64,000 nucleotides of DNA, taken from the NCBI GenBank assembly GCA_905178155.1, contig CAJINV010000005.1, positions 1,156,392-1,220,391 of the forward strand, in the 5' to 3' direction. The notes beneath the pieces were generated by a model. That model was given only the letters and a program-made list of their open reading frames with translations, was not told where the DNA came from and made no database searches. Below are positions 1-60,306 of the stretch, piece by piece. Within the stretch, counting starts at the first letter, position 1; each line of letters begins with the position of its first letter. The translations under genes and the position numbers were made by a program. The stretch comes from Amoebophrya sp. A120 (taxonomy: Eukaryota; Protista; Dinoflagellata).

Positions 1-1044
1 CACTGTTGCCCGCCGAGCATGCAAGAAGAGTTTTTTGCTGACTATTACGCTAAGCGGAACAACAAGAAAGAGGATACCACCGACGACGACGATGAACTCG
101 CAGCCATGGACACGGATCACGATGGGTTTCTGTCCGCAGACGAAATCCATGACGAGCAGTGCGACCTGCTGAAAGCCGACCACCAGTATGGCAACGATGA
201 TGGGAGAATTACTCTCCAGGAAATACACGACGCCTGTCACGACATCTGTGTCCCGGACTCGTCTATTTCGAAAACCGAGGATCCGCAGATCGTTCGGGCT
301 ATCTGCCACTGCTGCTCGCCGCACACAAAGGAAGCGTTTTTTCCGTACTTCGACGCCTGGCTGAGCACGACCACAACTTCTACAACCACCGCTGCGCCAG
401 TTGTGCTATCAGACGAAGACGAGCTTGCCGCCATGGACACGGATCACGATGGGTTTCTGTCCGCGGAAGAAATCCATGACGATCAGTGCGACCTCCTAAA
501 AGCCGATGGCGACGACGATGGGAGGATTACACTCAAGGAGATGTCTGAAGCCTGTCACAAAATTTGTGTGCCGGGCTCGGAGGCTTCGCAGATGGAACCC
601 GAGCTCGTGATCCTGCACATCTGCCACTGTTGCCCGCCGAGCATGCAAGAAGAGTTTTTTGCTGACTATTACGCTAAGCGGAACAACAAGAAAGAGGATA
701 CCACCGACGACGACGATGAACTCGCAGCCATGGACACGGATCACGATGGGTTTCTGTCCGCAGACGAAATCCATGACGAGCAGTGCGACCTGCTGAAAGC
801 CGACCACCAGTATGGCAACGATGATGGGAGAATTACTCTCCAGGAAATACACGACGCCTGTCACGACATCTGTGTCCCGGACTCGTCTATTTCGAAAACC
901 GAGGATCCGCAGATCGTTCGGGCTATCTGCCACTGCTGCTCGCCGCACACAAAGGAAGCGTTTTTTCCGTACTTCGACGCCTGGCTGAGCACGACCACAA
1001 CTTCTACAACCACCGCTGTGCCAGTCGTGCTATCAGACGAAGAC
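1..1044 (+). repeat. Intragenic tandem repeat, 624-bp period
   Basis: ATGCAAGAAGAGTTTTTTGCTGAC at 19 and 643; about 1-420 is near-identical to 625-1044; more diverged units follow to about 1700. Confidence 0.9.
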
Positions 1045-4000
1045 GAGCCTGCAGCACCATCAAGCTTTCTGAACAAACAGCACGGGGGCTTTCCGAAACA
1101 CACTGTCAGAGCGCCAGGTGTGCAATCAGACAACCACGAAGATCTTGTAGCCATTATGGACACGAACCATGATGGCTTTCTGTCCGCAGAAGAAATAAAT
1201 GACGACCAGTGCAACGTGCTAAAACTCGATCAACAGTCTGGCGACGGTGAGAGGAAAATTTCACTCAAGAAGTTGGATTACGCCTGTAGCGATTACTGTA
1301 CCCCGGGTGCGGCTGGTGTGGAGGATCTTGACGAGGACGTGCTCTTGGAAATCTGCCACTGCTGCCCGCCGGAAATGCAAGAAGCATTTTTCCCTTGGTA
1401 CTATGCGAACCGTGAGTACTTGAAGGCGCAGGAGGACCTCGATTTTGCGAAAATGGATGCTGACGATGACGGGCGGCTCATCGCAGACGAGATCCATGAC
1501 GGAATGTGCGACGCGGGAAAAGTCGACCACGAATGGGGCGACGGCGATGGGCAACTTACGGTGAAGGAAGTGCACACTATGTGCGATGCGGTGTGCGTGC
1601 CGGAATCCGCCCTCGAAACGCTTCCCGAGGAGGAACTGATGGCCCTGTGCCACTGCTGTCCGAAAGGTATGCAGGGGCGTTTTTTTGCGCACTATTACGG
1701 AAGAAAAAGCGGCGCTTTTGCGGGGAATCAGGCCGCAGAGGCCAGAATGGCGCTGGACTACTTGGTCTATCGCAACCCGGGAGATGTTGACCACGAAGAT
1801 CTGCAAGTCGCTTCGAGCACCACGACCTCGAACGACAGCGAAGGGGCTGCAGCCCCGTCGGCCTACCAATTTTGCAGCGTAGTGCACATGAACGAGGCGC
1901 CGGTGCGGGTTTGTGGCCGTTTCGACAAGGATGCAAACGCAATCTCCGTGACTATCGCGCGCTGTGTATCCTGTGCAAAAACGTCGTCCCCACACCATAG
2001 TCAAGTTGGGAAATCTGCTAGAGAAAGCAGCCAGCTTTGTTGTTGCGCATGACAAGTTTGGCCTCGATTATAGCTAGCTCAGCAGCGTCACAGGTCTAGC
2101 GCATCGCTCTAATTGGAGCGTCACAAATTCCGAAAAACGAGTACGAAAATTCCTAGCATCATGGGGCTCCGCATGAGAAATATTCTCAGCATGCAGATCC
2201 ATCTGCATATACAACTATGGGGTGGGGACGTTTTTACATAGCATACTACGTGGAGAAGGTAGTCGCGTGGGACCTGACCGACTGCCCGCAGCAGAAAGCC
2301 ACCTGGCAGAACCTGTTTCGGCAGACGTCTGAGAAAACCTACGACAGTTTTTATGGACTGCAAAAATGTCTGGGTCTGGAAGATTCTGACACTTGTCATG
2401 CACGTTTTGCATGAGCCATGATGTCTGTGATGCATCCCCTAGCAATACAGTTTTTTTGAGGGCTTCTTGATGCGTATTCCGCATGACAAATGCCTTCTCA
2501 GCGTAGCAAAAATTGCCTTCCTTTTGGTACTCATGCAATACAATTTTTTTTGGAATCCAAATGCAGCACCATCACAAGTTGCATTCTTCCAGACCCAGAC
2601 ATTTTTACATTTGATAGTTTTTACGATCACGCGTTCGAGCCGCAGTGCAACCTGGTGTCCACGTATGCAAGAAAGGAACTGTGTAAGTGTAACTCCGTAA
2701 AAATGCAGAACATGCAACAGTAGAGTTACACCTGTCATGCCACACGACAAGCATGAAGTCCTCGTTTCATGTGTGTTTTATCCCCTCATAAGGCACCCAT
2801 GACAGGTTATTTTCTCTGTCATGTAGAACAAATTTGTGATGCTGTCAGGGAAAGAAAGTTACACTAACACAGTTTTTTTATTGGATACCACGGACCGATC
2901 CGCCCTGCTGGAGAACGGCAGGCCCGACGTGTATCCTGAGTAAAAATGTCCCCACCCCAGAGTTGTCATGCAGATTTGCGATGACAGGAAGACTTGTAAT
3001 GCGCATCTCCATGAGAGGCAATACCAGTCGTGTTTTGGAATTTGTGATGCTGTGAACAGGATGAGGAGGTGGATTTGTTATGCGGCTTCCCTTGCTAAAC
3101 TGCACTACAATACAGCCTGCAACTTGTCATGCGTGACTCACAAAACTCCTAGGTTTGTGGTGCTAAGTCCCCAACTTGACTCTAGTGTGGGGACGTTTTT
3201 ACTCAGGATAACGTGCAGAAGAGCTTCAACCTGGTCCTGGTGCCGTTCGGCTGGAAGAGCCGCGCGCTGTGGAAGCAGCACACGGAGAGGCTGGTCGAGC
3301 AGCTGGAGCACGACTACCCGCCGCTGAACGCGCGCGAGATGGGCGGCCGGTTGAATTGGCACCGGATCGACGCCTGGCCGAGGTTTGTGGGTTCGGGGGT
3401 CTCCGACTACGAATGCAACGACGTCTATCCAGGAAAAAACACCCATCCCCATCCAATTTGTCATGCAAAACATGCATAAAATACACTATTTGTCATGCAA
3501 AAAATGGATGGGGATGGGTGTTTTTTCCTGGATAACGTCACGGGATGGGACTTCGTCAACTGCTTCTTCGACGCGGACCGCGACTGGTACCGGATCGCAC
3601 GCTTCGCGAACGACCAGTGCAATCGCGAGTACCAGGCCCAGGGTGGATTGGCGCACATGACGGTGCTCGTCCAGGCACGCATGGATCACCGTTCCGAGAG
3701 CGACAACGCGTACGGATTCGCCATGATGTCCTGGAACACCCTATCCTAAGGAAAAACGTCCCCGCCCCAGAGTCAAGATGGGGACTTTGCAACACAAACC
3801 TCGAAGTTTTGGGAGTCATGCATTACAAATTGCAGGCTCTAGTGTAGTAGTTCAGTTTAGCAAGGGAAGTCGCATTACAAATCCATCTGCTTAATATCCT
3901 GTTTACAGCATTACAAGTTCCAAAACATGATCGGAAATCCCTATCATGTGGATGCGCATTACAAATGCTTTTGTGCTTGCAGATCTGCATGGCAACTCTG

Positions 4001-5268
4001 GGGCGGGGATGTTTTCACACAGGATACACCCTGCTGACCCCGGCGGTTCCGGGGTGGAGCTACAAGACCGCGGCCTTATCAAATGTGAAAATGTCTGGGT
4101 CTGGAACGATGTAACTTGTGATGCGCATTTCAGAACACACAAAAATCTCTGATGCATAGGCAGCAAAAGCTGCTCACTTTCTGTCACCAAAGTGGGGGAC
4201 TTGCCATGCGGATTCGGCATTGCGGACGCTTCTCGAAACCTGTGATGCAGCTTCCACGCCAGACCTTCTGTGTCATGCAGAAACAGCATGACTCTTCCAG
4301 ACCCAGACATTTTTACATTTGATAGGCCTCCACGGTCGCCCACGAGCTGGGCCACGCCCTATTCGGCCTGGAAGACGAGTACCATTGGACGACAACCAGC
4401 ACTTTCTTCCCGAATTGCGGCAACGAAAAGTCGCAGTGCAACCGCTGGCTCGACCTGATCGACGCGGGGCTTTCCGGCTGCTACAAAGGCAGCTGCCAGG
4501 AGGAGCAAGGCTACATCGACGGGCCGGAGGTGGACAGCGTCATGGCCTGGTACGGCCGCCAAATGTCGCACAGCCAGAAGCGGATCTCCTGTTGCAAGTA
4601 CTTCAAAGTGCACAAGTTCACGCCTGCCTACTGCGACGTGTACAACCGGACGTATCGCAACAGGACCCTGCAGCGCCCCGTGAACGTCACGGTTCAGCAG
4701 GACGGCTGGGTGGTGGACGAAAGTAAGCACAATCTGGCCGGCTACTACAAGGGCCCGGTGCCCTTGCCGCTGCAGCAGAAGCTGATGGAAACCAGACTGG
4801 CGCCGAGGGTGGTATGGCGTTCTCAAATGTTACATTCTCAACTGTTACATGATTTGTCATGCAAAATTTAAATTGCAAGCAGAATCGATGTGATTAAGCT
4901 GCTGCGCTGCATGATAAATTCTAGAGGAGCCAAACAGGCTGAGAATCTCTCTGTGCCAAATCTGTGATGCGAGACGTGCAAGGTCATCCCTTTTACTTTT
5001 GTCATTCGCGCATCACAGATTCATGTAACAATTGAGAATGTAACAGTTGAGAGCGCCATACATGGACTGGGCCACGGTTTCCGCCGACGGCGTGGTTCAG
5101 CTGGACATCACCTTGAATCCCAAGTCCGAGTTTTATCCGGGCCAGGATGTGGTGCTCGACCTGGCCGGCTTCTGCGACGACCCGGGGCACTGGCGCAACC
5201 AGGAGCTGGACGTGAAAGCCAGTCATCCGCTCTTGGGAAAAGTCGAGTACCCGGACGTGAAAAACTAA
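1..5268 (+). CDS. Zinc metallopeptidase (M64/IgA-peptidase-like) with N-terminal EF-hand/Cys-rich repeats; 5' end outside window; interrupted by 8 TIR introners
   Basis: ORF 19-2052 has repeated MDTDHDGFLSADEI EF-hand-like loops and ICHCC motifs. Removing the 8 elements plus one TSD each gives one frame containing FNLVLVPFGW, TVAHELGHALFGLEDEY (HELGH 4341-4355), and a stop at 5266-5268. Confidence 0.75.
1967..2245. mobile_element. Introner, TIR group B (279 bp)
   Basis: TATCCTGTGCAAAAACGTC...GACGTTTTTACATAGCATA; flanks CTGTG/CTACG (3/5); removal of 284 nt restores frame. Confidence 0.8.
2352..2616. mobile_element. Introner, TIR group A (265 bp)
   Basis: TATGGACTGCAAAAATGTCTGGGTCTGGAAG...CTTCCAGACCCAGACATTTTTACATTTGATA; TSD GTTTT/GTTTT. 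Confidence 0.92.
2664..2887. mobile_element. Introner, TIR group G (224 bp)
   Basis: TATGCAAGAAAGGAACTGTGTAAGTGTAACT...AGTTACACTAACACAGTTTTTTTATTGGATA; TSD CCACG/CCACG. Confidence 0.9.
2932..3210. mobile_element. Introner, TIR group B (279 bp)
   Basis: TATCCTGAGTAAAAATGTCCCCAC...GTGGGGACGTTTTTACTCAGGATA; TSD ACGTG/ACGTG; reverse-complement homolog of 3742-4026. Confidence 0.93.
3426..3534. mobile_element. Introner, TIR group C (109 bp, smallest)
   Basis: Perfect 30-bp TIR TATCCAGGAAAAAACACCCATCCCCATCCA; TSD ACGTC/ACGTC. Confidence 0.95.
3742..4026. mobile_element. Introner, TIR group B (285 bp)
   Basis: TATCCTAAGGAAAAACGTCCCCGCCCCAGAG...CTCTGGGGCGGGGATGTTTTCACACAGGATA; TSD CACCC/CACCC. Confidence 0.92.
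4077..4324. mobile_element. Introner, TIR group A (248 bp)
   Basis: TATCAAATGTGAAAATGTCTGGGTCTGGAA...TTCCAGACCCAGACATTTTTACATTTGATA; TSD GGCCT/GGCCT; interior homologous to 10977-11230. Confidence 0.93.
4813..5060. mobile_element. Introner, TIR group D (248 bp)
   Basis: About 40-bp TIR TATGGCGTTCTCAAATGTTACATTCTCAACTGTTACATGA; flanks GGTGG/CATGG (3/5); frame restored (PRVDWATV). Confidence 0.87.
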
Positions 5269-6903: not shown

Positions 6904-9163
6904 ATGGCTTCCTTCAAGTCTATACCGGTGATTACGCCCTACACCTACAGTTCGAACATGGGTCCGGGCAGCGAGCACGGGGGTCCCTTTTACCCGCTCG
7001 GGCAGCAGTACCACCAGCCTGACATGCTGGCCGACCAGCTGAAGAAGGAGCGAAATCCCCCGCGAGCGGTGATCACGGGCGTGAACACGGACTTCAAGCT
7101 GGACTCCTCTCGCCGGCTGCGGTGGAACGACCCAAAGTCCGGGGTCGTCGACCAGTGTACCATGTACACCTACGGGCAGCCGGACTCTCACCGCTCCTGC
7201 CTATGCATTGCAAATATCGATCTGGGTCTGGAAGGTCGTTGCAAATTGTCATGCTAGTACGGTTGGATCGTGCAAAATAAAAATTTCAATTTGTGTTGCA
7301 TGGCTACCAAAAGTAGTTCGTTGTCCACTTTTATTAAACAAGTTTAGAGGCAGCTTATTCATCTCATGCAGGGGAGGCATGATAGAGATCTCACAGAATC
7401 TTCTGTCATGCTCATGGGCCATGAAATAAAACCAGCATGACCACAAGTCTCGCTATTCTCCAGAAGATCCAGACATATATTTGCAGTTGATACTGCGTCA
7501 CCAGCTACAACAAGGACGGCCTCACGATGAACTCCTTGTCCCACTACAACAAGGTCGGCGCCAAACACCTGCAAGCCCAGTCGCGGTCCAGTCTATCAAA
7601 AGTAAAAATGTCTGGGTCCTCTGGGAACTTGTGATGCTGGGTAGCGTCTCATGATGAGGCTACAAATGCTGGCTCAGCATGACAAGTTTCTGAGCTCCTC
7701 GGTGTTGCCTATTCTGCATGACAAACTGCGTAGTTTCTGCATCACGGAAAAGCGGAGCTGCTCTTGGGTAACGTGCATGACAGATCATTTAAGAGTCATG
7801 CCAGACAAGCATGACAAACATGAACAATTCTTCCAGACCCACACATTTTTACTTTTGATACCGTCCCATCCACTCCTACTTCAGCGAACCGAGAAGAAAG
7901 GTGCCGGACATCGGAACCAAGGTGTGGGATAACTTCGGCATCGACGGCCACATGAAGGCAACGTCAGAGGAGATCGGCAACTGGTCGCCGTTGTGGTACT
8001 TGATAGTGTGAATGAAATTCTCAACTTCTTATTTCGGCGTGCTTTAAATTTGATATTGTTTCCTCTGCGCTTGCTTTCTCTTCCAAACGAAAAACGTTGT
8101 TGATCCGCAACTTGATAGTTGCCCTCGGTATTAGTGCACTTGAAGAAGTTGTCGCAAAATCGTTTATTGAGACGGCGATCCTCGGCCTCGGGCTAAAGCT
8201 AATCCTGAAGAAGTTCTTACAGGGTTCTCATGCGAGAATCTGTTGAAAAAAAATAACCACCAGGTACCGCGCCGTGAACGACATGAACGTGTATGCCAAC
8301 CTGCGACCGGACACCATGAAAGCCCTCGGTCTCGAATACGAGGAGCCGGGCGTCAGATACGGCATGATCAACGGGGAGTTTCTTCCCAAGGTCGAAAAAG
8401 TGAACGATTCCGCGCGAAGTTCGGCGTGGAGCGAGAACCACAAGTACGTGGGGTATCCCAAAGAACCCTCCATGCAGGCCCGGGCCTACTACGGCAACGA
8501 CGCGCGGACCAGCTTCGCCTTGGCCGACGTCCAGAAGTACATGTCACCGCTATGCCACTGCAAACCAATTTGTCAGTCGTGTTTGGGTCGGGATTATTTC
8601 TGGTCATGCGAGTTTATGTAAAAGTACTACAGAAACTTCAACAGGATCTTTATCTTTTGTGATGGTACGAACATAGATAGGACAAGGAGCATTTTTGAGG
8701 GTTATTTCTTCTTGTTTTCTCATGCTGGGCGTTGTACCAATTGCAATAATTTTCCAGACGACATAAAGATACCCCTGAAGTTGTAGTTGTCAAAACAATC
8801 GCAAACTTGTCATGCGGTCGTGGACCACAGAAAGCCTTTGAATATTTCCACTCTGAATAGCTTGTGCACAGCAACACAACTAGAACTACGCTGCATCCTT
8901 TACCCAGACCCAGCAGACAACATGTTTGCAGTGAATAACCGGTCTCCATCGCGAACTCGGACCCCACGTCTCTCCTGCGCGCACAGAAGAACCGGGTTCG
9001 GGAGGAGGTTTTGGCGCAGGTGCGCCGGGCACCGCAGTACGGGAGCCACCGGGGGAGCGGGGGCGGGAGGGCACTGTCCAGCGGAAGGACCGCGTCGACA
9101 ACGCACTCCACACCGAGGGCCGGCGACTTCATGCGGAAGTCCGCCTCCACACCGAGAATGTGA
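6904..9163 (+). CDS. Hypothetical protein; 3 introners plus one GT-AG intron (7996-8263)
   Basis: ATG at 6904 (MASFKSIP). Joining across 7202-7492, 7594-7860, 7996-8263 and 8551-8937 gives a continuous frame ending TGA 9161-9163. No family recognised. Confidence 0.7.
7202..7492. mobile_element. Introner, TIR group A, degenerate (291 bp)
   Basis: TATGCATTGCAAATATCGATCTGGGTCTGGAAG...CCAGACATATATTTGCAGTTGATA; TSD CTGCC/CTGCG. Confidence 0.83.
7594..7860. mobile_element. Introner, TIR group A (267 bp)
   Basis: TATCAAAAGTAAAAATGTCTGGGTC...GACCCACACATTTTTACTTTTGATA; TSD CAGTC/CCGTC; interior highly similar to 39574-39831. Confidence 0.9.
8551..8937. mobile_element. Introner, decayed group A-like (387 bp)
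   Basis: TATGCCACTGCAAAC...TGGGTCGGG and CCCAGACCCAG...GTTTGCAGTGAATA; TSD ACCGC/ACCGG; frame restored. Confidence 0.75.
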
Positions 9164-10621: not shown

Positions 10622-13600
10622 ATGAGCAAAGAACAAAGAATGTGTCTCCGGGCGCAGGCAATGAAAAGGAAAAGCTCAACGACGACCTGTCAAGCCATGA
10701 TTGTCTGGGCATTAGCGTTTTCTTCTCCTCTTGCAGGCGTGCGTGCTTTCCGGTTTCAGCTAGAAGAAGCGAAGCTCCAGCCCTTCGGCACTACCGCTCA
10801 CCGTCATTATTTCGATCGCAAGAACGGAAACAACAAGGACACCAACCTGACCGGTGATGAAGGTTTTGCTGAGAAACGCGAGATGACAAAGCAGCTCGAG
10901 CAGTGTCCTCGTCCCATTGATTGGGACCCTGCGTACGAGATATTTTCCGTCAGGGACATTGCGGAAATGTTAGCGCTATGGATTGCAAAAGTGTCTAGCT
11001 CTGGAACAAGGTTGAAACCTGTGATGCGCATTTCAGAATGCAGAAAAATCTCTCATGCATAGGCAGCAAAAGTCGCCCACTTTCTGTCACAAAAATCAGG
11101 GATTTGTCGTGCGGATTCGGCATTGCGAACGCTTCTCGAAACCTGTGATGCTAGAGCTTCCATGCTAGACCTTCTGTGTCATGCACAAGCAGCATGATTC
11201 TTCCAGACCCAGACATTTTTACATTTGATAAGCGCGACAGCTAAAAATGGGCGGGGTCGACGCAATGATGCAGGCCTTGGCGAAGAGGCTCCAGAAGTTC
11301 TCGACCAAGTCCATGAATGTGGAGTACCATGACCGAGCCGTGTTCGAAGCCATGGTGGGAAAAGCTGCAGACGATGATAAAGCGAACGGCAAAACGGACC
11401 TTGGCAACCTCGGGGCCTACGTGACGAAACTGGCGGCCAAGTGCGCGTGGGTGAAGTTGGTGCGGGGAAGTTCGGGGTGGCAGGAGTGCTTCATATCCTG
11501 AGTAAAAACGTCCCCATACGAGAGTCAAGATGGGAAATGTGCTAGACAAAGGAGCCAGCTTTGGTTGTTTCGCATGACACGTTTGTACTCGTAGTGTAGT
11601 GCTGTTTAGCTAGTTCAGAAGCATCACTTACCTAGCACATCATGCTGATTCTAGCATCACAAATACCAGAACACGACGAGAAAACGCGTCTCATACAGCT
11701 CCGCATGAGAAACTTTTTGGCACGCAGATTTGCGGGACAACTCTGGCGTGGGGACGTTTTTACACAGGATACTTCACGAAGGAGATTTACAAGGTGTACC
11801 AGGAAGCCACTTGGCAAGACGCGAAATGCTACGCGGAAGCGGCGGAACGATGGATCTCTAAGGGAGGACTGTCGGCTGGTGGTGAGGACGAACTACGCAA
11901 CATTACCAGCGTGGACCAGATTCTCGCGTCCGGCGTGGCAGGTGTTGCCAGCAGCAGTGGCACAACTACAACTTCTGGCGCAACAACTGCAAGCTCAAGC
12001 ACGGTGTTGAACAACAAGCCGAGTACAACTGTTGAAACGAAGAAAGCGGAACTGCTTCGCTCGTTCAAAAATGCAGGGTTGGTGCACGACAGTGCTGCTC
12101 TGCCGCCGGAGGACCTAGCGAGGAAGATTTGCGAGATGGAGCTTGTAGCACCGGAAATTTGCCAGAGTGATCATCAAAAAATGGACGACGACGAGGATGT
12201 TAAGGAAGAAGCAGAAGCGCTCGATTCTAACGTTGGCAGGAGGACTTCTTGTTCAGCGGACGTTGAAACAGCCGGCTCTGAAGAAGAGTCCGACAGTGAT
12301 GTTGACAACTGCTCGACGGACTCCGTCGAGGCGGAAGGTGAAGAAGGTCGGGTTCTACAGGATGGACCACGTGGTCCTGGGTCTCCTGCACGAGGATCAG
12401 CTGCCACTCCTCTTGCAGATGCCCTCAACCTTGTGAAAGGTCCGCAGAAACGGGCGTCTGCGAAAGCTAAAGGCTGCATCGAATTCCGATCCGACATGAT
12501 GAGCCCGCAGTGGATGTTTTTTCTGGACAGTGAAAACAAGCAGGGGTTTCTGACCATCCGGGGTACGGTTTACCTTGACGACTGGAATACGAATTTCAAC
12601 AGCTCGGGGGATCGGGCCAGCCCGGTGTACGCGGAATACAAGCATTCTATGCCCGCCGCAAAGTCCGCGTTGTCGATGGGTACGAACCCAGAGGAGGAGA
12701 AGGAGTTGGGACCCTTTTTGATGCTGCACAAAGGTTTTTACGACCGCGCGGCCACGGCAATCATGGAACTGGAGGTGGAGTTGTGGAAGCAGAGCAAGAA
12801 GATTGCGCAACAAGAACAGCGCGTGGCCGAGGAGAAGATGAGCAAAGACGAAGGAGGTCGTGATGAGGATGATGGAGCAGGTACTAGTGGTAGTGAACGT
12901 GAACAAACGGTGGAAACCGAAACGGCTCCTGTGATGATCCGCGATTCCACGAGCAACTGCGATCCAGCCGACGAGGAAGTACTCGCTTTCGAAAAGCAAG
13001 CGGGGACAGAGAGTCACAAAAGCGACGTGTTCCGGAATTTCGCGGAAGAAAAAACTTACCTGGAAAAGCGCCAAACCAAATTGCCGACCTGCTTTGTCGA
13101 ATATCTGAAAAAAAACATCGCAACTAAAATCTCCGACAAGCTGTTCCTCCAGGGCCACTCGTTGGGCGGCGCCGCGGCATTGGTGATTCACCGTCTGAGG
13201 GAAAAGTCCGACCTATTGCAAGCGATGACGAACAACTCTGCCGGGAAAAAGATCCACACGAACGCGTTCTCCGCGCCCCCAATGTTCACGTCCGGGTCGC
13301 CGGAGCAGGCAAAGCTGGCTTTTGTGTACCTCGCCACCGGGAAACTCGCCAACTGGGCGCTGGATGTAAACCGCGTGCTTGCGGGCGACTACCGCTGCTC
13401 CTGGCTTGAGGAGCTCGCGACGGAGTTTCCGGACGGTGACTTGAATAAACAGGAGACTATATTGTGGAAGAACTCCACGAACCTGTTTTTCAATTTCGAC
13501 TTTGTGCCCCGGCTCGCGTTCATGAACGTGCAGAAGGAGCAAATTGTCCTCCCGCCCGTAGAGAAAGTTTTCTGGCTTCGCGACACCGCGCCCGCGGGGC

Positions 13601-14187
13601 TGCAAGAAAAGTTGGACAAGTGCGGGAAAAGCTGCAGCAAAACTCTTACCCGCGTCGCTACCGTATTCCGGGTTCCGCTTTACGCGCAAGCGACGGTCTT
13701 GTCGAGTCTAGACCAGATGCTCTCGCCGTATCCAAAGGAATTCTTGCTGGACGCAGTACAGGAACACCAGATGCCTACTTACGAACCGCTGTTGGTGGCC
13801 TTGTTAGGAGGAAAGAACAGCAAGAAAGATAGCCTGTCTGCTGGTGTAGCAAGTCTTGAAGTGGGGATGAAGGGTGAAGAGAAAAGCGTCCCTGCTTCTG
13901 AGACGCAGAACGTACAAGAATTTGAGCTGGAGCGACCGCGCGGTGAGGACAACGTCGAGAACCTTCTCGCCAATAGCAAAAGGAACAGCACTTCTGGAAA
14001 CAAGAAGGGCTTTCTTGATGAGGTTAAAGAATCTACTGCGGAGGTGGATGATGATGTTGATGACGTTGACGAGGATAAAAACAGCGAAGAAGAAGACCAA
14101 GAACCTGTTGCTTCCATGCCGCTCCCGCCGATCGTTACTCCGGCAGAGTACATGGAAATGACATATGGGGACATGACTATACACTAG
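10622..14187 (+). CDS. Class 3 lipase (alpha/beta hydrolase), copy A; 2 introners
   Basis: GHSLGG nucleophile motif, FLTIRGT, HKGFY, NFDFVPRL; N-terminal hydrophobic stretch; colinear with copy B after removing 10977-11230 and 11494-11771 plus one TSD each. Confidence 0.88.
10977..11230. mobile_element. Introner, TIR group A (254 bp); empty site in paralog
   Basis: TSD AGCGC/AGCGC; the paralog at about 16775 has a single AGCGC and no insert. Confidence 0.95.
11494..11771. mobile_element. Introner, TIR group B (278 bp); empty site in paralog
   Basis: TIR TATCCTG(A/T)GTAAAAACGTCCCCA matches 22/23; TSD CTTCA/CTTCA; the paralog at about 17033 has a single CTTCA. Confidence 0.96.
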
Positions 14188-26300: not shown

Positions 26301-29300
26301 ATGCTCGCCGAGGCTCTTTCTTCCGGCGCGCAGACCCGGCGGCGCGTTCTGTCTATCCAGAGCCACGTGGTTCACGGTTACGTCGGTAACAAATCCGCGA
26401 TCTTCCCCCTCCAGCTCCTCGGCTTTGACGTGGATCCGATAAACTCCGTGCAGTTTTCCAACCACACGGGCTACCCGTCTTTTTCCGGGGATATTTTGAA
26501 ACCGGATCAGCTCTGGTCGTTGTTCGAAAAACTGCCACAGCTCCAAGTCAAGTACTCCCACGTTCTAACCGGCTACATCGGCAGCAGGCAGTTCTTGGAA
26601 ACGGTCGGAAAAATCGTGGCCGAACTCCGGCAAAACGCGCCGGAGCTGATTTACGTCTGCGACCCGGTTTTGGGCGACAACGGGAAGTTTTACGCGCCGA
26701 AAGACTTGGTTTCCGCGTTCCAAGACACCATTTTACCCCTCGCGACAATTCTAACCCCGAACCAGTTCGAGTGCGAGCAACTGACGGGGATGAAGATCGA
26801 GACTTTGCAGGACGCCTGTGCCTGCTGCGACAGGTTGCACGAACTCGGGCCGCCGCACGTGTTCGTCACTTCTCTCGATATCTTCGCCGAGTCGGAGGGG
26901 GTGATCACCATGTTGTATTCCTCGAAAAGTCCGGTCGTGATTGAGCAAAATCTTGAGGAGTCTGAGGGTGACGAAAATAAAGCAGAATCCGAGCTGTCCT
27001 CTACCGCGGTCAGCCCGGGGAACAAGTACTTGCTGAAACTCCCTTTATTACATTTCGCCGCCGCGGCCAGTCCGAGCAGGAAAAGCTCAACGCATAGCCA
27101 TCTTGTTCCGGGGGAACAACAGTCCTCCGGAGTTGTAGCAGAGAAGGAACTATCAAATGCAAAAATGTTTGGGTCAGGAAGAATGCAAGATTTGTGAAGC
27201 AGTTTTTCCATGACCCATGAGGCCTGGAATGCAGCACCTAGCATGACAAACCCTGTGAGGTGTTTATCATGCCTATCCTGCATGAGAAACTCCCTGTCAA
27301 ACTGGTCAAAAGTGGACATCTTTTGGTAATCACGCAACGCAAATTTTTGCATGCTTCAGATTCAGCATGACAAGTTCCATGCTTCCAGACCTGGACATTT
27401 TTGCATTTGATAGAAACCACCGACCACGGGAACCGGGTTCACCGGCACCGGGGATCTCTATTGAGAGGAAAAATCTCCCCTCCCCATATCGAAAAGGTAT
27501 CTTTCCGAAAATTTGCGTTGCTGATTTGAGGTCACAAATCACATTGCTCTTGCAAGAAGACAAGGGCAGAAGCTTCCGCCCCATTATGGAAGCGATTTGT
27601 CATGCTGTTGGGCCTAAAGGTCAGCCGTTTGCAATGCTGAACAACTAGACCCATACGCCCCTATCTAGCCAGGGGATCTGGCCGCAATGCCTTCCTGCAA
27701 TACAAATCAGATTTGTGTATGCAAATCCAGCATCACAGATTTCCTTTTTGATATGGGGAGGGGGGATTTTCCCTTTTCATAATCTCACGGCCGCGCTTCT
27801 GCTGGCGCGGACGTTTGAGCATCCGTGTGAACTCCCGAAAGCGTTGGAGTTGGTCGGCGCCAGCATGCAGGCGGTGCTCGAGGAGACAGCCATGCGCGGG
27901 CGGCCGCGAAGATTGAGTGTCTGCTCGTCCTATCAAATGCAAAAATGTCTGGGTCTGGAAGAATGCAAGACTTGTCATGCATATTTCTCATGACCCATGA
28001 TGCCTGTAATGCATGACCTAGCATCGCAGACTTTTAGGGGGCTCCCTGATGCACCTTCCGCATGAGAAGTGCCCTGTCCGTGTAAGCACAATTTGTGCCT
28101 CTCTTGCTGGTCATACAGTACAAATTTTTTTAGAGTCCAAAAACAGCATGACAAGTTGCAATCTTCCAGACCCAGACACTTTTGCAGTTGATACGTCCTC
28201 CAACTTTGGCCCGGCGGCGAGGAAAAGTTTCTCCGCGTCGGAAACAGCAAAACTAGAAGCACCTGGTGCACCACCAGCCCCCGCGGCTTCTTCACCCAAG
28301 GTGGGGCCTACTTCAGGAGCAGCTCCGCCACCTGTCAGTAAGAAGCTCGTGCCGCCGGAGATCCGGCTGATTCAGTCGAAAGCGCAACTGGAAAGACCGA
28401 CAGTTGTGCACTACTGCAGGCGGATCGGGCAGAACTTAGGCATCAAGGCCGTCGCTTTCGACATGGACGGAACTTTGACGCTCCCACACCAGATCGATTT
28501 CAAGAAACTTCGGACGATGATCGACGCCCCGCGGGATTCGGACATCCTTGGCTACGTGAAAAGCATCGAAAGTGAGGAGAAGCGCAGAACCTTAACCGAA
28601 ACGATCGAAGCCGTGGAGTTGGCCGGGAAATACGAATTGCAGCCGGGCATTGTCGAGGTGCTAAAGGAATTGAAAAAGAAGGGCTACAAGCTCGGACTGA
28701 TCACGCGGAACCACTTGGGCGGTGTGGAAGTGTTTTTGAAAGAACTTGAGAAAAAGTGGAACAGCAGCTGCACAGCGGCACTACCTGACATTCGCGTCGT
28801 CGCACCAGCAGGGAGTGGTCTTACCACCACGGGTGGCTACGGCTATCCCGAAGACGGTGCTGGTTTGGGTCATCCTGATGCAGGCTGTGGCAGAACAAGT
28901 ACTGTCGCGATCTCCAGCGGCTTATCGTCCGTGACGTCCTCTGCCGGAGGCGGACCGTCCCCTCCGGAATCTGCTTGTCCGGTGGATCCAAGAGAGTCCG
29001 CGGACTCCGGGTCGTTCTCCATACCGACATCCGCGGCCGGTGCGACGGGGAACGGCCACGCGAAGGAGCACGACAAGAATGCTGGCGGTGGACCAAACGC
29101 ATCACAACATGACTCATTTCCTTTCAAGATCTTCGACGGGATTCGGACCCGCGACTCCCCGGTCGCCCCAAAGCCTAGCGGGGAGGCGATCCGCGACCTG
29201 TGCGAGAAGGTGTTTGGTTGCGATCCAGAGGAGGTCCTGATTGTTGGTGACCACGTGGACGACGTGCGGTGCGGGGAGGACGTCGGGGCTTGGACGTGCG

Positions 29301-29380: not shown

Positions 29381-29423
29381 GCCTAATATCAGTGGTGACT
29401 GCCCACCGAGGTACTTACTATAC

Positions 29424-30981: not shown

Positions 30982-32989
30982 ATGTTCCGTTCCGTCTACG
31001 ACCAGCTCACCGCAGCGAGCTCCTTCCCAGCAACCTCGTTTCATCTCCTCCCCAGCGACCCAGCGAAGGCTCGTCACACCGGTCTTCTTGACAACTACGT
31101 GGCTCACACCAGAACAGCAGGGGAGTATGATGCAGACGATGCTGCGTTTCTTGGAGCTCAGGGCGTTGGCTCCTACTCCTTCGGTTTCTCATCCTCCTCA
31201 ACGAGCAAAACCTGGCACGACCACAATCACAGGCGAAATCATCTTCACAACAGCAGGATAAAAACCGCCTTCAACGAGTCGCCGACGTTCCAGATCGTCT
31301 CCGGGATCACCGCCGCAAAGGAGCACTGCCTCGTCGCCGACGCACCGGACCGCGATGGGACAGGCTTGTACCGAATGTTTGTCGGATGTGTCTGTGATGC
31401 GAGGCACGAAGTACTGGATGCTTGTTTCATGCATAAATTACTTGCAGTTGCACTGCAGTTCCTTTCCAGTTTCACTCAAATAAGACAAATCCAAAAATAA
31501 AAAACTCTTCCACAGCCATCTCGCCCCGTGTGATGATCAAGTGAGGAAGATGAACGGCCACGAACTGTATCGGTTCATGGACAACGGGGCGCTCTACACA
31601 CTGATGGGCAAAAAGTGCATGACCCTGGAGGACGGCAAGGTGACCGCTTCCGGCGGGTCGGTGACGCTGCAAGACTGCGACGCGGCAACCGCTGCGTCGG
31701 ATGGGCGCGCGTTGTGGGAACCCATGCCGAGCTCGCAGCTGAAGGTGGCGAAGGTCGGGGACTACTGCTTGTCCATGGGGCCGGAAAAGGCGTCGATCGG
31801 GGAGGTATAGAATCGTGAATAAGAGGAAGAGAGACCAAAGCTAGTGTTGCAGTTCCAAATGAAGGTTGCATGATTCATTGGCTTTTTCATGCTGGATCGA
31901 AGTTGTTCTTCTTCTTTTTTCACAAAAAAATTGATTCTCGTGAAAACCCCCTCCGCAGACCAACCTGATCAAGGGCAGTAGCTCCATCGACGCGTCCAGT
32001 AGCAACGGCACCCACACCGCAAAAATGATTGCCGACGGAAACGACTCCACGTACTGGGCCAGCGATTGGGACCCTAGCGAGCCGGAAACGGTGACGATAG
32101 GTATAAGAGGTGAAGAGCGATTCGTCATGTACATGCTGTGCGTATGACATACAAAATTTTTTTCGCAAATTTTTTCTTCATTTCAACTAACCTCACACCA
32201 AAACATTCAGATCTCGGCAGTTCGCAGAAGCTTTCAAAAGTGGACATTGACTGGGAGTATCCGCCAAAATCTTTCTCTATCGAATCCTCCTCCGACGGAC
32301 ACCACTTCAGTTCCTGCAACCGCGTGAATTTCAACGACAAGTGGACGTACCACATGCCGGGACGGGCGCTGAAAGCTCGGTACCTGCGAATCAAGATGCA
32401 TGAAACGCACCCGACGCTGGGCCAACACAAGGAATCGGGCAGACACCTGTATGGAATCCAGCACGTGCGCGTCGTCACTATCAAATGTAAAAATGTCTGG
32501 GTCTGGAAGAACGCAACTTGTCATGCTAAATCTGAAGCATGCAAAAATCTGTATTGCATGATTACCAAAAGTCGTTGAGTTTTGACCAAGTCGCGAGGGA
32601 GTTTCTCATGCGGGATAGGCATGAGGGAGATCGCACAGAATCTGTCATGCCAGGTCCTGCATTCCAGACCTCATGGGTCATGGAAAAGCTGCGTGACAAA
32701 TAGCGCATTCTTCCAGACCCAGACACTTTTGCATTTGATAGTCACCCGGGCGTTACAACCCATTCTTCAGAAGTGCAGCGACGCAGCCCGGAGTGCGGAT
32801 GCGCGGGACAAATGGTTTCTCGTCGAGGTCACTGAGTTCAACCCGTGCAAAAACCCGAAGCTGGATTTACCCCCGCAGGGCGTGCCGCAAACGACGCAGT
32901 TCGCGGGCAATGAGGAATCGAAGGACGGGCAGAAGATGGATGTCAGTGGGGTGCCAAGCAAGGAAATGATGTCGGCGGCAGAGGAATGA
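30982..32989 (+). CDS. Ricin-B-like plus F5/8 type C (discoidin) domain protein resembling alveolate CCp/LAP modules; start uncertain
   Basis: GT-AG introns 31368-31515, 31805-31958, 32101-32210 and introner 32479-32740 join into one frame with SQLK...DYCLS, ADGNDSTYWAS, IDWEYPPKSFSI, DARDKWF. Confidence 0.65.
32479..32740. mobile_element. Introner, TIR group A (262 bp)
   Basis: TATCAAATGTAAAAATGTCTGGGTCTGGAAG...GCATTTGATA; TSD GTCAC/GTCAC. Confidence 0.93.
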
Positions 32990-33635: not shown

Positions 33636-35546
33636 ATGATGTCGCTGTTTCTCTTGCTCTACTCCTCAGTTTTCCTTCCGGCGGTTCTCACATCTGCTTT
33701 CAAAATCGCGCCTCTGGGTGTCACCGAAGCCGACTGGAACCGAGGGAAGCCGAGTTTCTCCGCCAGTGTGAAGCAAATTTACGACAGCGCGGTGTTGAAA
33801 GCTAACAAGAATGCCAAGATCGCGGCACAAGCTTCTAGCGGTCTTGTTGTCAAAAACAAAAATGCCGCGACGGCCAGCTCGGTTGGTGTCGTGCAGAATC
33901 ACATAAACAAGCAGGCGGCAGCGCATCTCACCGCGGTCAAGGATGCTTACGTGAACACGGTGAGGAATAATTCTGCTGCGAAGCCAAAGGAGAAATCCGC
34001 CACAGTGACTGCGCAGAAGAGAGAACCTGTTCTCGTACGGAGAACGACCAGCGCCGGGAACAAGGCCTGGAGTGCCAGCGGGCCAACAGCAGTAGCGGAT
34101 GCAAGTGCGGTTGGGGGGAACAAGGCAAAGGCACGGCCAGCCGCCAAGAACCCGCGTGGACAAGCTGCTGCTCCGGTTGTGACAGTCAGCAAGATCAGCA
34201 CCGGTGTGGAAGGACAAGTCAAGAAAACGGCTGCTGCGAGTTCATTATCTGCTAAAAAAGCCAATACTCAAACTCAAAGCGACGGCCCGGTCCAAACAGC
34301 AAAGGAGTACGAGGAGGATTTTCCCGTCGACGACGCGAACCAGAATTCTTCGGCGGCGAGCACCACCGTGAGTAGTGGTAGTCCATCTTCTGAGGCCGAA
34401 ACTCCCACAGTCGAGGAAGAAAAACCAGTTCTCACGAAAGACGGAATTCCGGTGGACGCCAAGCCGGAGGAGCACAGCGCGGTGACAGCGAGTACCAAGA
34501 ATGCAGCGGATGCCAAGGCTGACGTTGTCGCCAGCGGCGCAGCGGTGGCGGCGAAGGAGGAGCAGGTGGAGGAGATGAAAGGGAAACAAATCAGCGCGGA
34601 AACTTCGCAGGCCACCGCGGCGAGTGATGTCTCGAACGCGCAAGACAGTCTGGCCGCGGAGAAGCAAAACGCGAATGCCGAGCAACTGGAATATTCCGAC
34701 GCGCAGGCGAACGTCGCGGCGAAAAAGGAGGAGCTGCGTGTTGCCACGGAAATTGCGGAAGCGGCGCGCAAGGAACTGGAGGAGGCAAACAAGAGATTAG
34801 AGGAGGCGACGGCTAGAGTAGCCTTCGCGGAAAAGCTATCCTGAGGAAAAACGTTCCCACCCAATAGTCAAGATGGGAAATCTGCTACACAAATCCCCAA
34901 GCTTTGGCTGTCGCGCATGACAAATTGTGGCTCGCTGTGTAGTCGTGTTTAGCTAGTGCAGCAGCATATCAGATCCAGTTTGTCATGCTGATTCGAGCAT
35001 GACGAGTCTCAGATCACAACGAGAAAACGCCTTTCATGAGTCTCCGCATGAGAAACATTTTAAGCATGCGTTTTAGCATTACAACTCTGGGGTTGGGACG
35101 TTTTTACACAGGATAAAAGCAGCTGAAGAAAGCGGAAGATGAAGCGAGGTCGGCGACCGCAAACCGCTATCCTGTGCAAAAGTATCGTACTCGTAGTAAT
35201 TGCAGTCCTGCAATACAAATTTTTTTCTCAAGGTAAATCTGCATGACAGATTTTATTTCTCGTGCTGAGGAAATTTGTATTGCATTTATACGAGTGCGAT
35301 ACTTTTGCAATGCATAACCGCGAAGCGGCGGAGGCCGCGCTTTTGGCCGCGCAAAAGGCACTAGAGCAGGCGAAAGAGGTGGAGTATTTGGCGGAGCAGG
35401 ATTTGGAGGCCCTCAAACAGCGGATCATCGACCGGATCGAGGGCGAGAGAAGTTCCGCGGTGGGCAGATGGGGTGGCAGTGCACAGCTGTTTGGAACTAC
35501 GAGCTTGATGATCGCGATTGGCTTAGTAGGGTTTGGCTTCTGGTGA
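33636..35546 (+). CDS. Probable secreted/surface Ala-rich coiled-coil protein with C-terminal hydrophobic (GPI/TM-like) tail; 2 introners
   Basis: Signal-peptide-like MMSLFLLLYSSVFLPAVLTSA; coiled-coil continues across both elements; ends LMIAIGLVGFGFW*. Confidence 0.72.
34837..35115. mobile_element. Introner, TIR group B (279 bp)
   Basis: TATCCTGAGGAAAAACGTTCCCAC...GGGACGTTTTTACACAGGATA; TSD AAAGC/AAAGC. Confidence 0.93.
35168..35316. mobile_element. Introner, TIR group F (149 bp)
   Basis: TATCCTGTGCAAAAGTATCGTACTCGTA...TACGAGTGCGATACTTTTGCAATGCATA; TSD ACCGC/ACCGC; related to 56700-56849. Confidence 0.9.
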
Positions 35547-39000: not shown

Positions 39001-39971
39001 TATGGTTTGCAGCCAAGCCACAAAGCGGAGTCTGAAGTTCGTCCGGAGGCCTCGTCACAGAAGCGTGCTGCGGTTGCAGAAGTAGATCAGAGCCAAAAAT
39101 TAGCGCAGGCTGGTACTGTACCAACTACAACGAGCTTGCAACGGGAGATGAGCAACTCCTCGGCCAAGAATCTCGAAACCAGCACGACCATGAACCTTGT
39201 CGACAGTGAGGCGAGCACCGAGAAGATAAAGTCGCGCTGCGTTGTCCGCACGACACACACACACTCCCTGAAATCCTTATTTGGGAACATTAACGAGAAC
39301 CGGTTTATTGGGAATGCAACGGCGAATACGACAACATCGAATGGCGCGGTGTCCTCCTCATCGTCCCGTTTCATGAACAATAAAACCAACACACATTTCA
39401 CCACCACCGCACACCACGCGCAGATGAATCATTGTAACCAAATTTCAACAACATCAAACACCTTCGCCCCGCCGCCCCGCACGCTCTATGCGTTCCAGCC
39501 GTCGCCCGACGATGAGCAAGAGCCACCGGAAGACTCGCCGCTGGACCCGACCGTGTTGCAATTTACCACGCCGTATCAAATGCAAAAATGTCTGGGTCTG
39601 GAAACTTGTGATGCTGGGTGGCGTCTCATGATGAGGCTACGAACGCTGGCTCAGCATGGCAAGTTTCTGAGCTCCTAGGTGTTGCCTATTCTGCATGACA
39701 AACTGCGCTTCTGCATCACAGCAAAACGGAGCTCATCTTGGGTAACGTGCATGACAGATTTAAGAGTCATGCCAGACAAGGAGCATGACAAACATGAATT
39801 CTTCCCGACCCAGATATTTTTACAGTTGATACGCCGGTACAGGCCAACCCGGATCCGCACTCGAGATTGGAGAACGCGCTGGCCAGTGCAGAGCAGCAGT
39901 TGCGAAAAACGAAGACGCGAGGATTTTACAACACCAATGTCAAGGCTACCTCGCCTGTTTTCTCGAATTAG
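36094..39971 (+). CDS. Hypothetical Ser/Thr-rich coiled-coil protein
   Basis: Predicted GT-AG introns 37402-37543 and 37803-37915 plus introner 39574-39831 link three long ORFs; TAG at 39969-39971. Confidence 0.65.
39574..39831. mobile_element. Introner, TIR group A (258 bp)
   Basis: TSD CGCCG/CGCCG; interior nearly the same as 7594-7860. Confidence 0.93.
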
Positions 39972-47145: not shown

Positions 47146-48657
47146 ATGACAGCCTGCCGTTCCGAGTTCACGGGCTACGTGAGGTCCGTAGACAAGGACA
47201 AACTTCAATCCGAACTTCTCTCTTCTGACGGGCACGCAGCCCCCTGCCATAGGAGGAAACCCTTCGCCGACGCGCGCTACCAGAGCAACATCAGGACGCT
47301 TGGCGCCGACGAGATGCCGAACGTGGAAACGAAACTGGACCGACACCTGGTGTCCGATGGCGTCAAGGGGAGTCTGCGCATGAGCGCGAGCCCACTCCGC
47401 GGGGAGAGGCAAGCGGCGCAGCAGGCAGCAGCAGTGCGGGAGCCGATCGATATTGCGCCAAGTTTCAGCGAAGACTCCATGACGTCGATCTACTATGCAA
47501 TAAAAAAAGATTGTAGCTGTAAGTTTGTGTTGATGCGCTAAGTACATGTGTTAAGATGATTGCGTCTCATGCTGGTCATGCATTGCAGGACCAGGAGTCA
47601 ACTCAAGCGCGGTTTCACGTGCTATTTGCGCAAGACAGGTTTTTGCTGTCATGCCAAACAGATTTGTAATGCTGGCCAGCCAAAATCAAAAAGTTACACC
47701 TACGATCTTTTTTTCTTTGATTTCTACCCGAACGCGACGAGCATACACAAGAAGAGGACGGTACACAATTTAATTTGATTTGTGCACCACGAGGATGAGC
47801 ATGCATCAGAGAAAATGCTTATGCTGCATTGCATGCTGGGGTAACGACCACAACAATTTTTCGTTTCAAAAATAATCTCCTCAGGTGAAGCACGAACACA
47901 CCCCATACGCTCACAGCGAGGAGTTTACCATGCTCAAGCAAGAAGTCCGCGACTTCAACGACGGCGTTCCGCCCTCCATGCTCAGTGGCAGCTATGCAGC
48001 AGGAGGGTATTTTGTAGTTTCTATGTTTTCCACTTTCACTCTCAGAAGTTCACCTCAATCCGCATGCCATGGTGTCATGACTGTTGGTTGATGTGGGCTT
48101 TTTTGGCACCGGGGGTATCTATTACTTTGTCACAGCAGCGCCGACCCCTCACCATCCCTCCGCGGCGTCCCGCATGGCTACCAAGACTATTACAACCCAA
48201 ACCTGGTGGAACGGAGCACGTTGTTAGACCATAACCCGACGCGATCGAGCGCGCCGGTGGAGTCAGAGTCGTCGAAAACGGGAAAAAAGCTGATTCCGCA
48301 GCCGGAGAGGTTACAGGGCAACCCGGACGCGCTGATGCACGTCGGACGTATTACTTATCCGATTCGCTTAGCCTTAGCCTTACTAATGTTGGTGCAATCA
48401 AATTTTGGGTCTACTTCGCATGACAGACGCATTAGGTTACTTTATGAAAGTCTAGCATGACAGGCTGCAAGAACAGTAGAGACTTAAGAAGAAAAAACGC
48501 ATCAGATGGCCTCGGCAGCGGGCCGGAGGCGGTACCGAGAAAAAACTACCATCTAATGGTCCACCAAGCCCCCTTGCGCGGCGACTACTCCCGACAAGTC
48601 ATCACGCGGTACGAGCAGAGCCCAGCGAGCAAGGGACAGCAGGATTTGTTTCACTAG
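47146..48657 (+). CDS. Hypothetical protein; 1 introner plus GT-AG introns; start uncertain
   Basis: Introner 47494-47722 and introns 47761-47884, 48007-48135, 48348-48505 give a continuous frame to TAG 48655-48657. Confidence 0.6.
47494..47722. mobile_element. Introner, TIR group G (229 bp); right end ATT
   Basis: TATGCAATAAAAAAAGATTGTAGCTGTAA...TTACACCTACGATCTTTTTTTCTTTGATT; TSD TCTAC/TCTAC. Confidence 0.85.
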
Positions 48658-60100: not shown

Positions 60101-60306
60101 ACAAATATCTGTCTTACGTGATTAACAAAAGACGCCGTTTTCTGACCACCATTAGAGGGAGTTTCTCATGCAGGACAGGCATGATAGAGACCTCGCAGAA
60201 TCTTTCATGCTATGTACTGCATTCCCGACCTCATGGGGCATGGAAATTCTGCATGACAATTTCGTATCCTTCCAGACCCAGACATACTTGCACTTGATAA
60301 GCGTGA
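54176..60306 (+). CDS. Large hypothetical membrane protein (two predicted TM regions); 7 introners plus GT-AG intron 58861-59008
   Basis: Continuous frame after removing all elements; TM-like VWAAFASFFLIFGGILYFTSIL and IAAVFMTLVILGGSPFVLCCSIVGLFAI; stop TGA is formed at the last junction. Confidence 0.72.
55943..56213. mobile_element. Introner, TIR group D (271 bp)
   Basis: TATGAC...AATCTCAAACGTTACAATAGAATC and GATTCTATTGTAACGTTTGAGATT...GCCATA; TSD TCAAG/TCAAG. Confidence 0.88.
56360..56614. mobile_element. Introner, TIR group A (255 bp)
   Basis: TATGCATTGCAAATATGTCTGGGTCTGGAA...TTCCAGACCCAGACATTTTTGCATTTGATA; TSD CGATT/CGATT. Confidence 0.92.
56700..56849. mobile_element. Introner, TIR group F (150 bp)
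   Basis: TATACTGTGCAAAAGTACCGTACTCGTA...TACTAGTACGATACTTTTGCAATGCATA; TSD GAACA/GAACA. Confidence 0.9.
57765..58075. mobile_element. Introner, group E-like (311 bp)
   Basis: TATTACAGTGAAAATCTCCCCAC...GTGGGGGGCATTTTTCATTGTAATA; TSD ACTAC/ACTAC. Confidence 0.88.
58138..58450. mobile_element. Introner, TIR group H (313 bp)
   Basis: TATGGAACGGTCAGGATTGAAATTGACAAAGTTGAAA...TTTCAACTTTGTCGATTTCAATCCTGGCGCTTCCATA; TSD CACCA/CACCG. Confidence 0.9.
58487..58798. mobile_element. Introner, TIR group E (312 bp)
   Basis: TATCAAAAGGAAAAATCCCCCCACCCCATA...TATGGGGAGGGGGGATTTTTCCTCTCAATA; TSD CCAGT/CCAGT. Confidence 0.92.
60035..60299. mobile_element. Introner, TIR group A (265 bp), inserted at the stop codon
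   Basis: TATGCACTGCAAATAATATGTCTGGG...CCCAGACATACTTGCACTTGATA; TSD AGCGT/AGCGT. Confidence 0.88.

Follow-up and report, generated by a model that had tools for sequence, protein, structure and literature searches.

In Amoebophrya, about 60% of introns are removed without GT-AG borders or U1, by a mechanism that the text of Farhat et al. (2021; PMC7789003) leaves open. For Amoebophrya sp. A120, that text describes about 29,850 repeated non-canonical introns of about 250 base pairs (bp), with inverted repeats that begin with TAT followed by seven variable bases and at least three A, and with direct repeats of 3-5 nucleotides (nt) at their borders. It also reports U2, U4, U5, U6 and 83 of 89 spliceosomal proteins, with U1 not found. 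Within 22 of the 58 table rows of Gozashti et al. (2025; PMC12130899), most A120 families are DNA elements with terminal inverted repeats (TIRs) of unassigned superfamily. Here we analyse a stretch of 64,000 nt from A120 (contig CAJINV010000005.1, positions 1,156,392 to 1,220,391; hereafter the window), in which related intron-like elements lie within genes in both orientations.

Three other described systems come close. According to the preprint on the introners of Polarella glacialis and Aureococcus (bioRxiv 10.1101/2020.10.14.339549), these are also inverted-repeat transposons that make a target duplication, serve as introns in both directions and leave the mRNA unchanged. However, their G(T/C/A) and AG are supplied by the element or the duplication, and their orientation is biased, whereas the A120 elements need neither dinucleotide and show no bias. 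The nonconventional introns of euglenids, as described in PMC12501133 and PMC11282704, share the absence of GT-AG, the paired ends, the direct repeats at the junction, an origin resembling MITEs (miniature transposable elements with inverted repeats) and cuts at set, unequal distances from a paired motif (PMC12501133). They differ in their CDG/CHG motif with spacers N3 and N5-6, in the purine that starts the next exon and in their excision as circles. The A120 elements, from an unrelated lineage, have TAT/ATA, spacers of 1+4 or 2+3 nt, which sum to 5, and no clear purine rule; the euglenid signature N3-CDG ... CHG-N5-6 followed by R was not found in them. Finally, the non-canonical introns of Fritillaria borealis (PMC11282704, PMC13326754) are described as transposon-derived, with inverted repeats, a target duplication and non-GT-AG borders, and the review PMC11282704 assigns their removal to an altered spliceosome; we liken them to the A120 elements, whose removal is read from gene models. 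The Fritillaria introns keep the preferred ends AG-AC and AG-AT, whereas the terminal dinucleotides of the A120 elements are free except for one T.

The elements in the window are almost certainly the published introner elements of A120. Three exon queries were 100% identical to named Amoebophrya sp. A120 proteins, and the elements carry the known end motif of TAT, seven variable nt and at least three A. They also agree with the introners of Farhat et al. (2021) in their boundary direct repeats, length of about 250 bp, lack of GT-AG and hairpin. Where the text of that paper gives repeats of 3-5 nt and variable, undefined borders, we find exactly 5 nt and one cut register (3 or 4, see below). 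Element orientation is not treated in that text, where the four uses of 'orientation' all concern gene order, and the supplement contains neither 'reverse' nor 'strand', though the figures may hold it; the passages of PMC12130899 and the literature searched gave no account of it either, and other papers may hold one. As far as these searches reach, the near 1:1 orientation, the duplication of exactly 5 bp whose intronic copy is neutral and drifts freely, the single cut register and the 5'-specific T are new. The class of introns is already known; its removal mechanism is made more testable.

The initial annotation had proposed that the same element occurs in both orientations, and our comparisons support this. 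The elements at 2932-3210 and 3742-4026 are reverse-complement homologues, with a global identity of 0.81 in reverse complement versus 0.60 in the same orientation. Two further proposed pairs behaved alike: 27151-27412 with 32479-32740 (0.84 versus 0.62) and 56360-56614 with 39574-39831 (0.73 versus 0.60). Trimming 45 nt from each end removes the contribution of the inverted repeats, and the local scores of the trimmed interiors were 189 reversed versus 18 in the same orientation, 193 versus 21 and 74 versus 15, respectively; the highest of 200 shuffles scored 23-25. For a fourth pair, 58487-58798 and 27459-27781, the outer ends mirror each other as claimed (22 versus 17 of 24 bases), but the orientation of the interior is not callable (59 versus 53) and the two elements were assigned to different clusters. 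The element coordinates in the initial annotation were all exact, and the host frames of the named elements all lie on the + strand.

Scanning the window yielded 30 candidates beginning with TAT and ending with ATA, two of which carry one change. Just outside these ends is a 5-bp direct repeat that is perfect in 21 of the 30, matches at 4/5 bases in six and at 3/5 in two, and is absent in one. The elements are short and non-coding, most of them with stops in all three frames, and they have inverted repeats, a target duplication of fixed length and an empty site, as MITEs do. One candidate, 61096-61276, was rejected as an element: it is degenerate, lies outside any clear frame and has neither a duplication nor a restored frame.

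After removal of an element together with 5 nt, the + strand frame stays open across 28 of the 30 junctions, while removal of 4 or 3 nt breaks these frames. The exceptions are 60035, where a stop is formed at the junction, and 61096, which has no frame. When the eight elements of the gene at 1..5268 are each removed with 5 nt, a single frame of 1096 codons results, and from window position 961 up to the stop it is identical to the deposited model P0103. At all 14 junctions compared, which lie in three genes, removal of element plus 5 nt agrees with the deposited models. These include 2932 and 3742, which lie within one gene, as had been noted; its model leaves out both. The deposited A120 models rest on transcript alignments because ab initio tools had failed (PMC7789003). 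Additionally, homologues of pyridoxal kinase continue straight across the junction of element 27459. The tandem paralogues at 10622-14188 and 16209-19467, which are 92% identical in their last exon, give a further view of the insertions. The first holds two elements and the second holds empty sites, and after removal of element plus 5 nt the two align without gaps (329/359 identical). Thus, the target duplication is 5 bp, and both insertions either postdate the duplication of the gene or were precisely lost.

We extended the comparison with an arm-motif scan of metagenome contigs, which gave at least 173 stretches; 165 loci (L001-L165) merged into 152 stretches totalling 495 kilobases (kb), and the figures from them apply among the matches listed. 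Window elements are 69-94% identical to their best metagenome match, about the same closeness as among those copies. In 325 well-paired elements found without requiring a repeat, the 5-nt duplication was perfect in 249, and none had a 6- or 7-nt duplication. Gene strand was called by a coding model that had been trained on window sequence (own calls matched neighbour calls in 204 of 207 cases), and 334 of the 389 elements from window and metagenome loci were oriented and kept. All 11 families, of 3-161 members, were found in both orientations and none departed from 1:1 (87:74, 21:20, 9:16, 9:12, 9:7, 5:7, 7:4, 5:3, 3:3, 3:2 and 2:1). Thus, the presence of the same elements in both orientations holds for every family.

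Directional branch and splice motifs proper to each orientation, which would have counted against the initial annotation, were not found in the 334 oriented copies. No 3-, 4- or 5-mer was strand-biased after correction. GT-AG in any of six registers occurred in 20 of 334, which by a rough estimate is about the expectation from base frequencies, and the GT or GC donor with AG acceptor of U2-type introns does not describe these elements. At 2932 and 3742, no GT-AG register is compatible with the models, and a canonical rescue of these two was rejected. The base composition of the 5-bp repeat is nearly flat. A difference between the two ends at arm position 4, where TATG was commoner at the 5' end in the window, was gone in 240 oriented copies (C/G 48, G/C 34) and was dropped. 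An insertion phase bias of 93:68:49 was not used, as it could stem from a weak C-N-N-N-G target preference.

Unrelated families do share an internal motif, TGTnnTGC / GCAnnACA, at 11.7 per kb versus 0.4 outside the elements, facing inward near both ends. A few copies also occur in GT-AG introns near 31393, 47075, 48418 and 48455. This motif is possibly the binding site of a common factor, or it may be a trace of old elements.

The position of the cut can be read from junctions where the two repeat copies are unequal. There are six such junctions among the 14, and jointly they permit only a cut after repeat base 3 or 4 (registers 3 and 4). The homologues P0105 and P0106 retain the same residues at 7202 and 7594, in agreement with the cut registers. 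From the transcript-based models we infer a 5' cut 1 or 2 nt before TAT and a 3' cut 4 or 3 nt after ATA. Mismatches between the repeat copies occurred at 14/404, 11/363 and 31/428 sites at codon positions 1, 2 and 3, and at 7/239 for the central base. The third positions drift about twice as much as the first and second, so coding selection acts on the exons. Drift of the intronic copy is free, at about 3%, and matching repeats are therefore not needed for removal. This speaks against slippage, template switching and excision of DNA guided by homology.

The terminal triplets were more constrained. One change in TAT or ATA was found in 23 of 370 elements, and two changes in none. The 22 changes that could be oriented fell 0, 2 and 6 times on the T, A and T of the 5' end and, from the outermost base inward, 8, 4 and 2 times at the 3' end (exact p=0.006). 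Compared with family consensus, the first position was changed at 0/295 5' ends and 8/295 3' ends (p=0.007), where the drift rate of the duplication would predict about 10.6 changes. At the 5' end, one base appears to be required for removal. The proposal that removal is strand-independent is supported for the interior, whose orientation is irrelevant, but not fully for the ends, where the first T is unchanged at the 5' end and its 3' counterpart is not. Only in register 4 is the conserved 5' T intron position +2; among 14 GT-AG introns picked by hand from the window, 12 have GTA. All nine leading A120 boundary types in Table S4 of PMC7789003 carry T at +2, in line with register 4 (66/334). 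We did not use this table because a mock aligner that chooses the most GT-AG-like of six equivalent registers gives a similar list (74-80/267).

As the interior orientation is irrelevant, no directional motif or GT-AG register is needed and the arms are predicted to pair either way, the symmetric ends must carry the signal. The initial annotation went further and named the hairpin itself as the likely splice signal. This reading is supported only in part. Pairing of the arms at positions 9-20 was predicted in 35 of 36 elements sampled, equally on both strands. If RNA pairing were under selection, G-U should exceed A-C on the sense strand, but the counts at arm positions 8-22 were 184:158 (p=0.18). 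An excess was seen at positions 16-22 (92:58, p=0.007, one of six position ranges); positions 4-7 gave 85:78, and four ranges besides 8-22 were null. Private transitions kept pairing 92 times and broke it 78 times (p=0.32). Compensatory substitutions between left and right TIRs, which had been named as a check, are present in part. Between nearest neighbours, both arms changed together 102 times versus 39 expected, and 48 of these co-changes were compensatory; but positions 4-7 beside the cut, which differ up to four times faster than the interior, did not covary, and transposition or conversion at the DNA level would make the arms change together just as well. The hairpin appears to be available, and it may or may not be what is read.

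The ends also vary in an unusual way. Arm positions 4, 5, 7, 10, 14 and 15 differ by 0.21-0.48 between nearest neighbours, against 0.11 in the interior, 0.02 for TAT and 0.04 for the A-run. These fast positions switch among the recurring alleles CAAA, GCAT, GGAT, CAAC and CAAG, and it looks as if element ends are rewritten or swapped. At L004:1570-1800, two ABC-transporter-like coding halves on opposite strands join at a fused element, through inversion or misassembly.

Based on these results, we propose a model in which the elements are removed by an adapted, U1-less spliceosome, to which we assign a probability of roughly 0.45. The elements are small copies of a TAT...ATA TIR transposon with a 5-bp target duplication and lie in either orientation at about 1:1. 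The pre-mRNA would then be cut at fixed distances from the symmetric ends, so that the element and exactly one duplicated copy are removed. The arms may bring the ends together, by pairing or through a bound factor, and this would replace U1 and the factors that read AG. If the 5' cut falls 1 nt before TAT, the intron would start N-U-A-U, and the element would supply the +2 U and +3 A of the usual GUA donor whichever way it faces. Spliceosomal removal of transposon-derived non-canonical introns has the Fritillaria case described above as a precedent. The idea that insertion in both orientations speaks against a spliceosome is not supported, because the introners of Polarella and Aureococcus, according to the preprint cited above, insert both ways and are spliceosomal.

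Several points weigh against this model. The splicing of the window copies rests on the deposited models, and in a region of tandem repeats upstream of position 961, P0103 diverges from the window; the deposited models are therefore not flawless. The strand calls derive from our own coding model. Register 3 is also compatible with the junctions, and in that register the conserved T is not at +2. The branch motif is not enriched on the sense strand (of 334, CTAAC in 5 sense versus 3 antisense, YTRAY in 159 versus 166), and there is no preference for G at +1 (100/334) or for AG at the 3' end (33/334). The inner 3' A, a candidate branch point that was invariant in a first tally, changed twice under blind and manual strand calls and was rejected in that role. 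The difference between 5' and 3' ends was found post hoc and comprises eight events, one of them with a neighbour-derived strand; with self-called strands only it is 0 versus 5 (p=0.06), and the p-value of the full table becomes 0.08 if L018:2261 lies on the other strand. The 14 canonical donors were chosen by eye. Finally, a stem from +2 onward would hide bases that the spliceosome must read.

Another possibility, to which we narrowly prefer the adapted spliceosome and which we hold with clearly less than even confidence, is that a dedicated structure-guided endonuclease cuts to either side of the stem formed by the arms and an RNA ligase joins the exons, with no spliceosome involved. The initial annotation had named such a route, and one of this kind has been proposed for the nonconventional introns of euglenids (PMC12501133). 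The balanced families, the absence of strand-biased k-mers and the scarcity of GT-AG suit such an enzyme, as do the predicted pairing on both strands, the G-U excess at arm positions 16-22 and the arm co-changes with their compensatory share. The cuts are staggered around the stem, with spacers of 1 and 4 nt in register 4, an offset like the N3 and N5-6 of Euglena as described in PMC12501133. A sequence-specific enzyme could likewise need a 5' U. On the other side are the overall wobble count, the null result in four other ranges of arm positions, the balance of private transitions, the missing covariation next to the cut and the equal expectation of co-change from DNA events. Sense-strand deamination would also mimic an excess of G-U wobble. 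No candidate enzyme turned up, and no search aimed at one was made.

We consider it improbable that the elements are skipped without any cutting of RNA, through DNA excision in some life stage, like the internal eliminated sequences of ciliates, or through polymerase slippage between the 5-bp repeats, across the hairpin. Either process would yield precise loss of the element and one repeat, element orientation would not matter, and register 3 would fit a two-fold symmetric reaction. Yet the repeat copies need not match, as the drift at all codon positions and at the central base shows, and if both DNA strands took part in the reaction, the two terminal bases should be under equal constraint, where 0 versus 8 changes were observed. 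A hairpin beside a short direct repeat is a known setting of reverse-transcriptase template-switch artefacts, but it is very improbable that the 'spliced' form is such an artefact and the genes truly broken, as one gene contains eight elements and a conserved pyridoxal kinase, whose homologues cross the junctions, contains three, most elements carry stops in all three frames and the drift of the repeats by codon position shows coding selection on the exons.

Whether removal is by the adapted spliceosome that we prefer or by a nuclease and ligase, these counts narrow the removal problem, as the sequence of the interior and of the repeat is irrelevant and the cut is fixed relative to the ends. 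We tentatively put forward a broader hypothesis, which we hold to be possible though short of probable: the symmetric transposon end alone would suffice as an intron signal. The cuts N/N-UAU ... AUA-NNNN/ (slashes mark the cuts) would apply to tens of thousands of introns and be made by a U1-free spliceosome, or by a new nuclease-ligase for which the paired ends set the distance, with the 5' U as the only required base and no consensus for G, AG or a branch point. Co-evolution of the transposon family with the splicing machinery would make any insertion silent, whatever its direction or site, and the bases beside the termini would be rewritten from a few end alleles. If the spliceosome is responsible, the least that it demands of a substrate is much less strict than assumed; if it is not, there is a second nuclear splicing system, convergent with that of euglenids. 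Either mechanism, if true, would show how a host can render a transposon harmless at any insertion site.

Table 1. Host gene, introner elements and target duplications in the window (register n, cut after repeat base n).
Feature	Position	Strand	Support
Host gene, begins before window; EF-hand repeats, HELGH motif, eight elements inside	1..5268	+	frame restoration, Pfam EF-hands, HExxH motif
Element, family 2; duplication 3/5 alike; model allows cut registers 3-7	1967..2245	.	
Element, family 0	2352..2616	.	
Element, family 3	2664..2887	.	
Target duplication ACGTG, upstream copy	2927..2931	+	
Introner element, 279 bp, family 2, reversed relative to 3742-4026	2932..3210	.	predicted end-to-end fold, z -5.6
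Target duplication ACGTG, downstream copy	3211..3215	+	
Introner element of 109 bp with perfect 25-nt arms and duplication ACGTC	3426..3534	.	
Target duplication CACCC, upstream copy	3737..3741	+	
Introner element, 285 bp, family 2	3742..4026	.	predicted end-to-end fold, z -6.1
Target duplication CACCC, downstream copy	4027..4031	+	
Element, family 0, reversed relative to 2352-2616 in same gene	4077..4324	.	
Element, family 6; duplication 3/5 alike; registers 2-5	4813..5060	.	
Element; duplication mismatch at base 5; registers 0-4, homologues agree	7202..7492	.	
Element, family 0; duplication mismatch at base 2; registers 2-5, homologues agree	7594..7860	.	
Element, 387 bp; duplication mismatch at base 5; registers 0-4	8551..8937	.	
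Element, family 0; paralogue empty site near 16774-16778	10977..11230	.	
Element, family 2; paralogue empty site near 17033-17037	11494..11771	.	
Element, family 0; host gene pyridoxal kinase-HAD; registers 2-5	27151..27412	.	
Element, family 4, within conserved GTGDL/TAALL stretch of pyridoxal kinase	27459..27781	.	
Element, family 0	27931..28193	.	
Element, family 0, reverse complement of 27151-27412	32479..32740	.	
Element, family 2	34837..35115	.	
Element, family 1 (about 150 bp)	35168..35316	.	
Element, family 0	39574..39831	.	
Element, family 3; 3' end is ATT	47494..47722	.	
Element	55943..56213	.	
Element, family 0, reverse complement of 39574-39831	56360..56614	.	
Element, family 1	56700..56849	.	
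Element	57765..58075	.	
Element, family 5	58138..58450	.	
Element, family 8	58487..58798	.	
Element; after removal with 5 nt, long upstream frame stops at junction TGA	60035..60299	.	
Element, family 4, reversed relative to 27459-27781; 3' end is ACA	61785..62122	.	

An autonomous transposase partner with the same ends was not found in the window or, among the matches listed, in the 495 kb of related loci. At L023:505-1608 lies a 1104-bp element with the same end design, a 5-bp duplication and a long, unrelated GC-rich interior; it was rejected as the partner, as no transposase-like frame was seen by eye. Rfam gave no match within the window, and viral contigs gave no match to the elements.

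Several other features of the window deserve mention. The host gene contains a 624-bp tandem EF-hand repeat (1-960), where P0103 is mismatched and seems to skip repeats; its HELGH motif is metallopeptidase-like. The gene at 26301-29381 fuses pyridoxal kinase to a HAD-type hydrolase, a fusion common to many protist proteins. At 60030-60304, the element sits at a stop codon: the junction forms TGA, and the frame one base off runs for 22 more codons. The stretch at 45714-46085 repeats the 3' end of the gene located at about 39838-40200 and starts just past the site of element 39574-39831. A gene at 50047-51895 that by eye resembles electron-transfer flavoprotein alpha has a 1.8-kb interruption, which contains three copies of an exon end with its donor (near 50047, 50943 and 51859) and a 19-bp tandem array. 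Last, about 104 CCA units close a long frame at 63689-64000.

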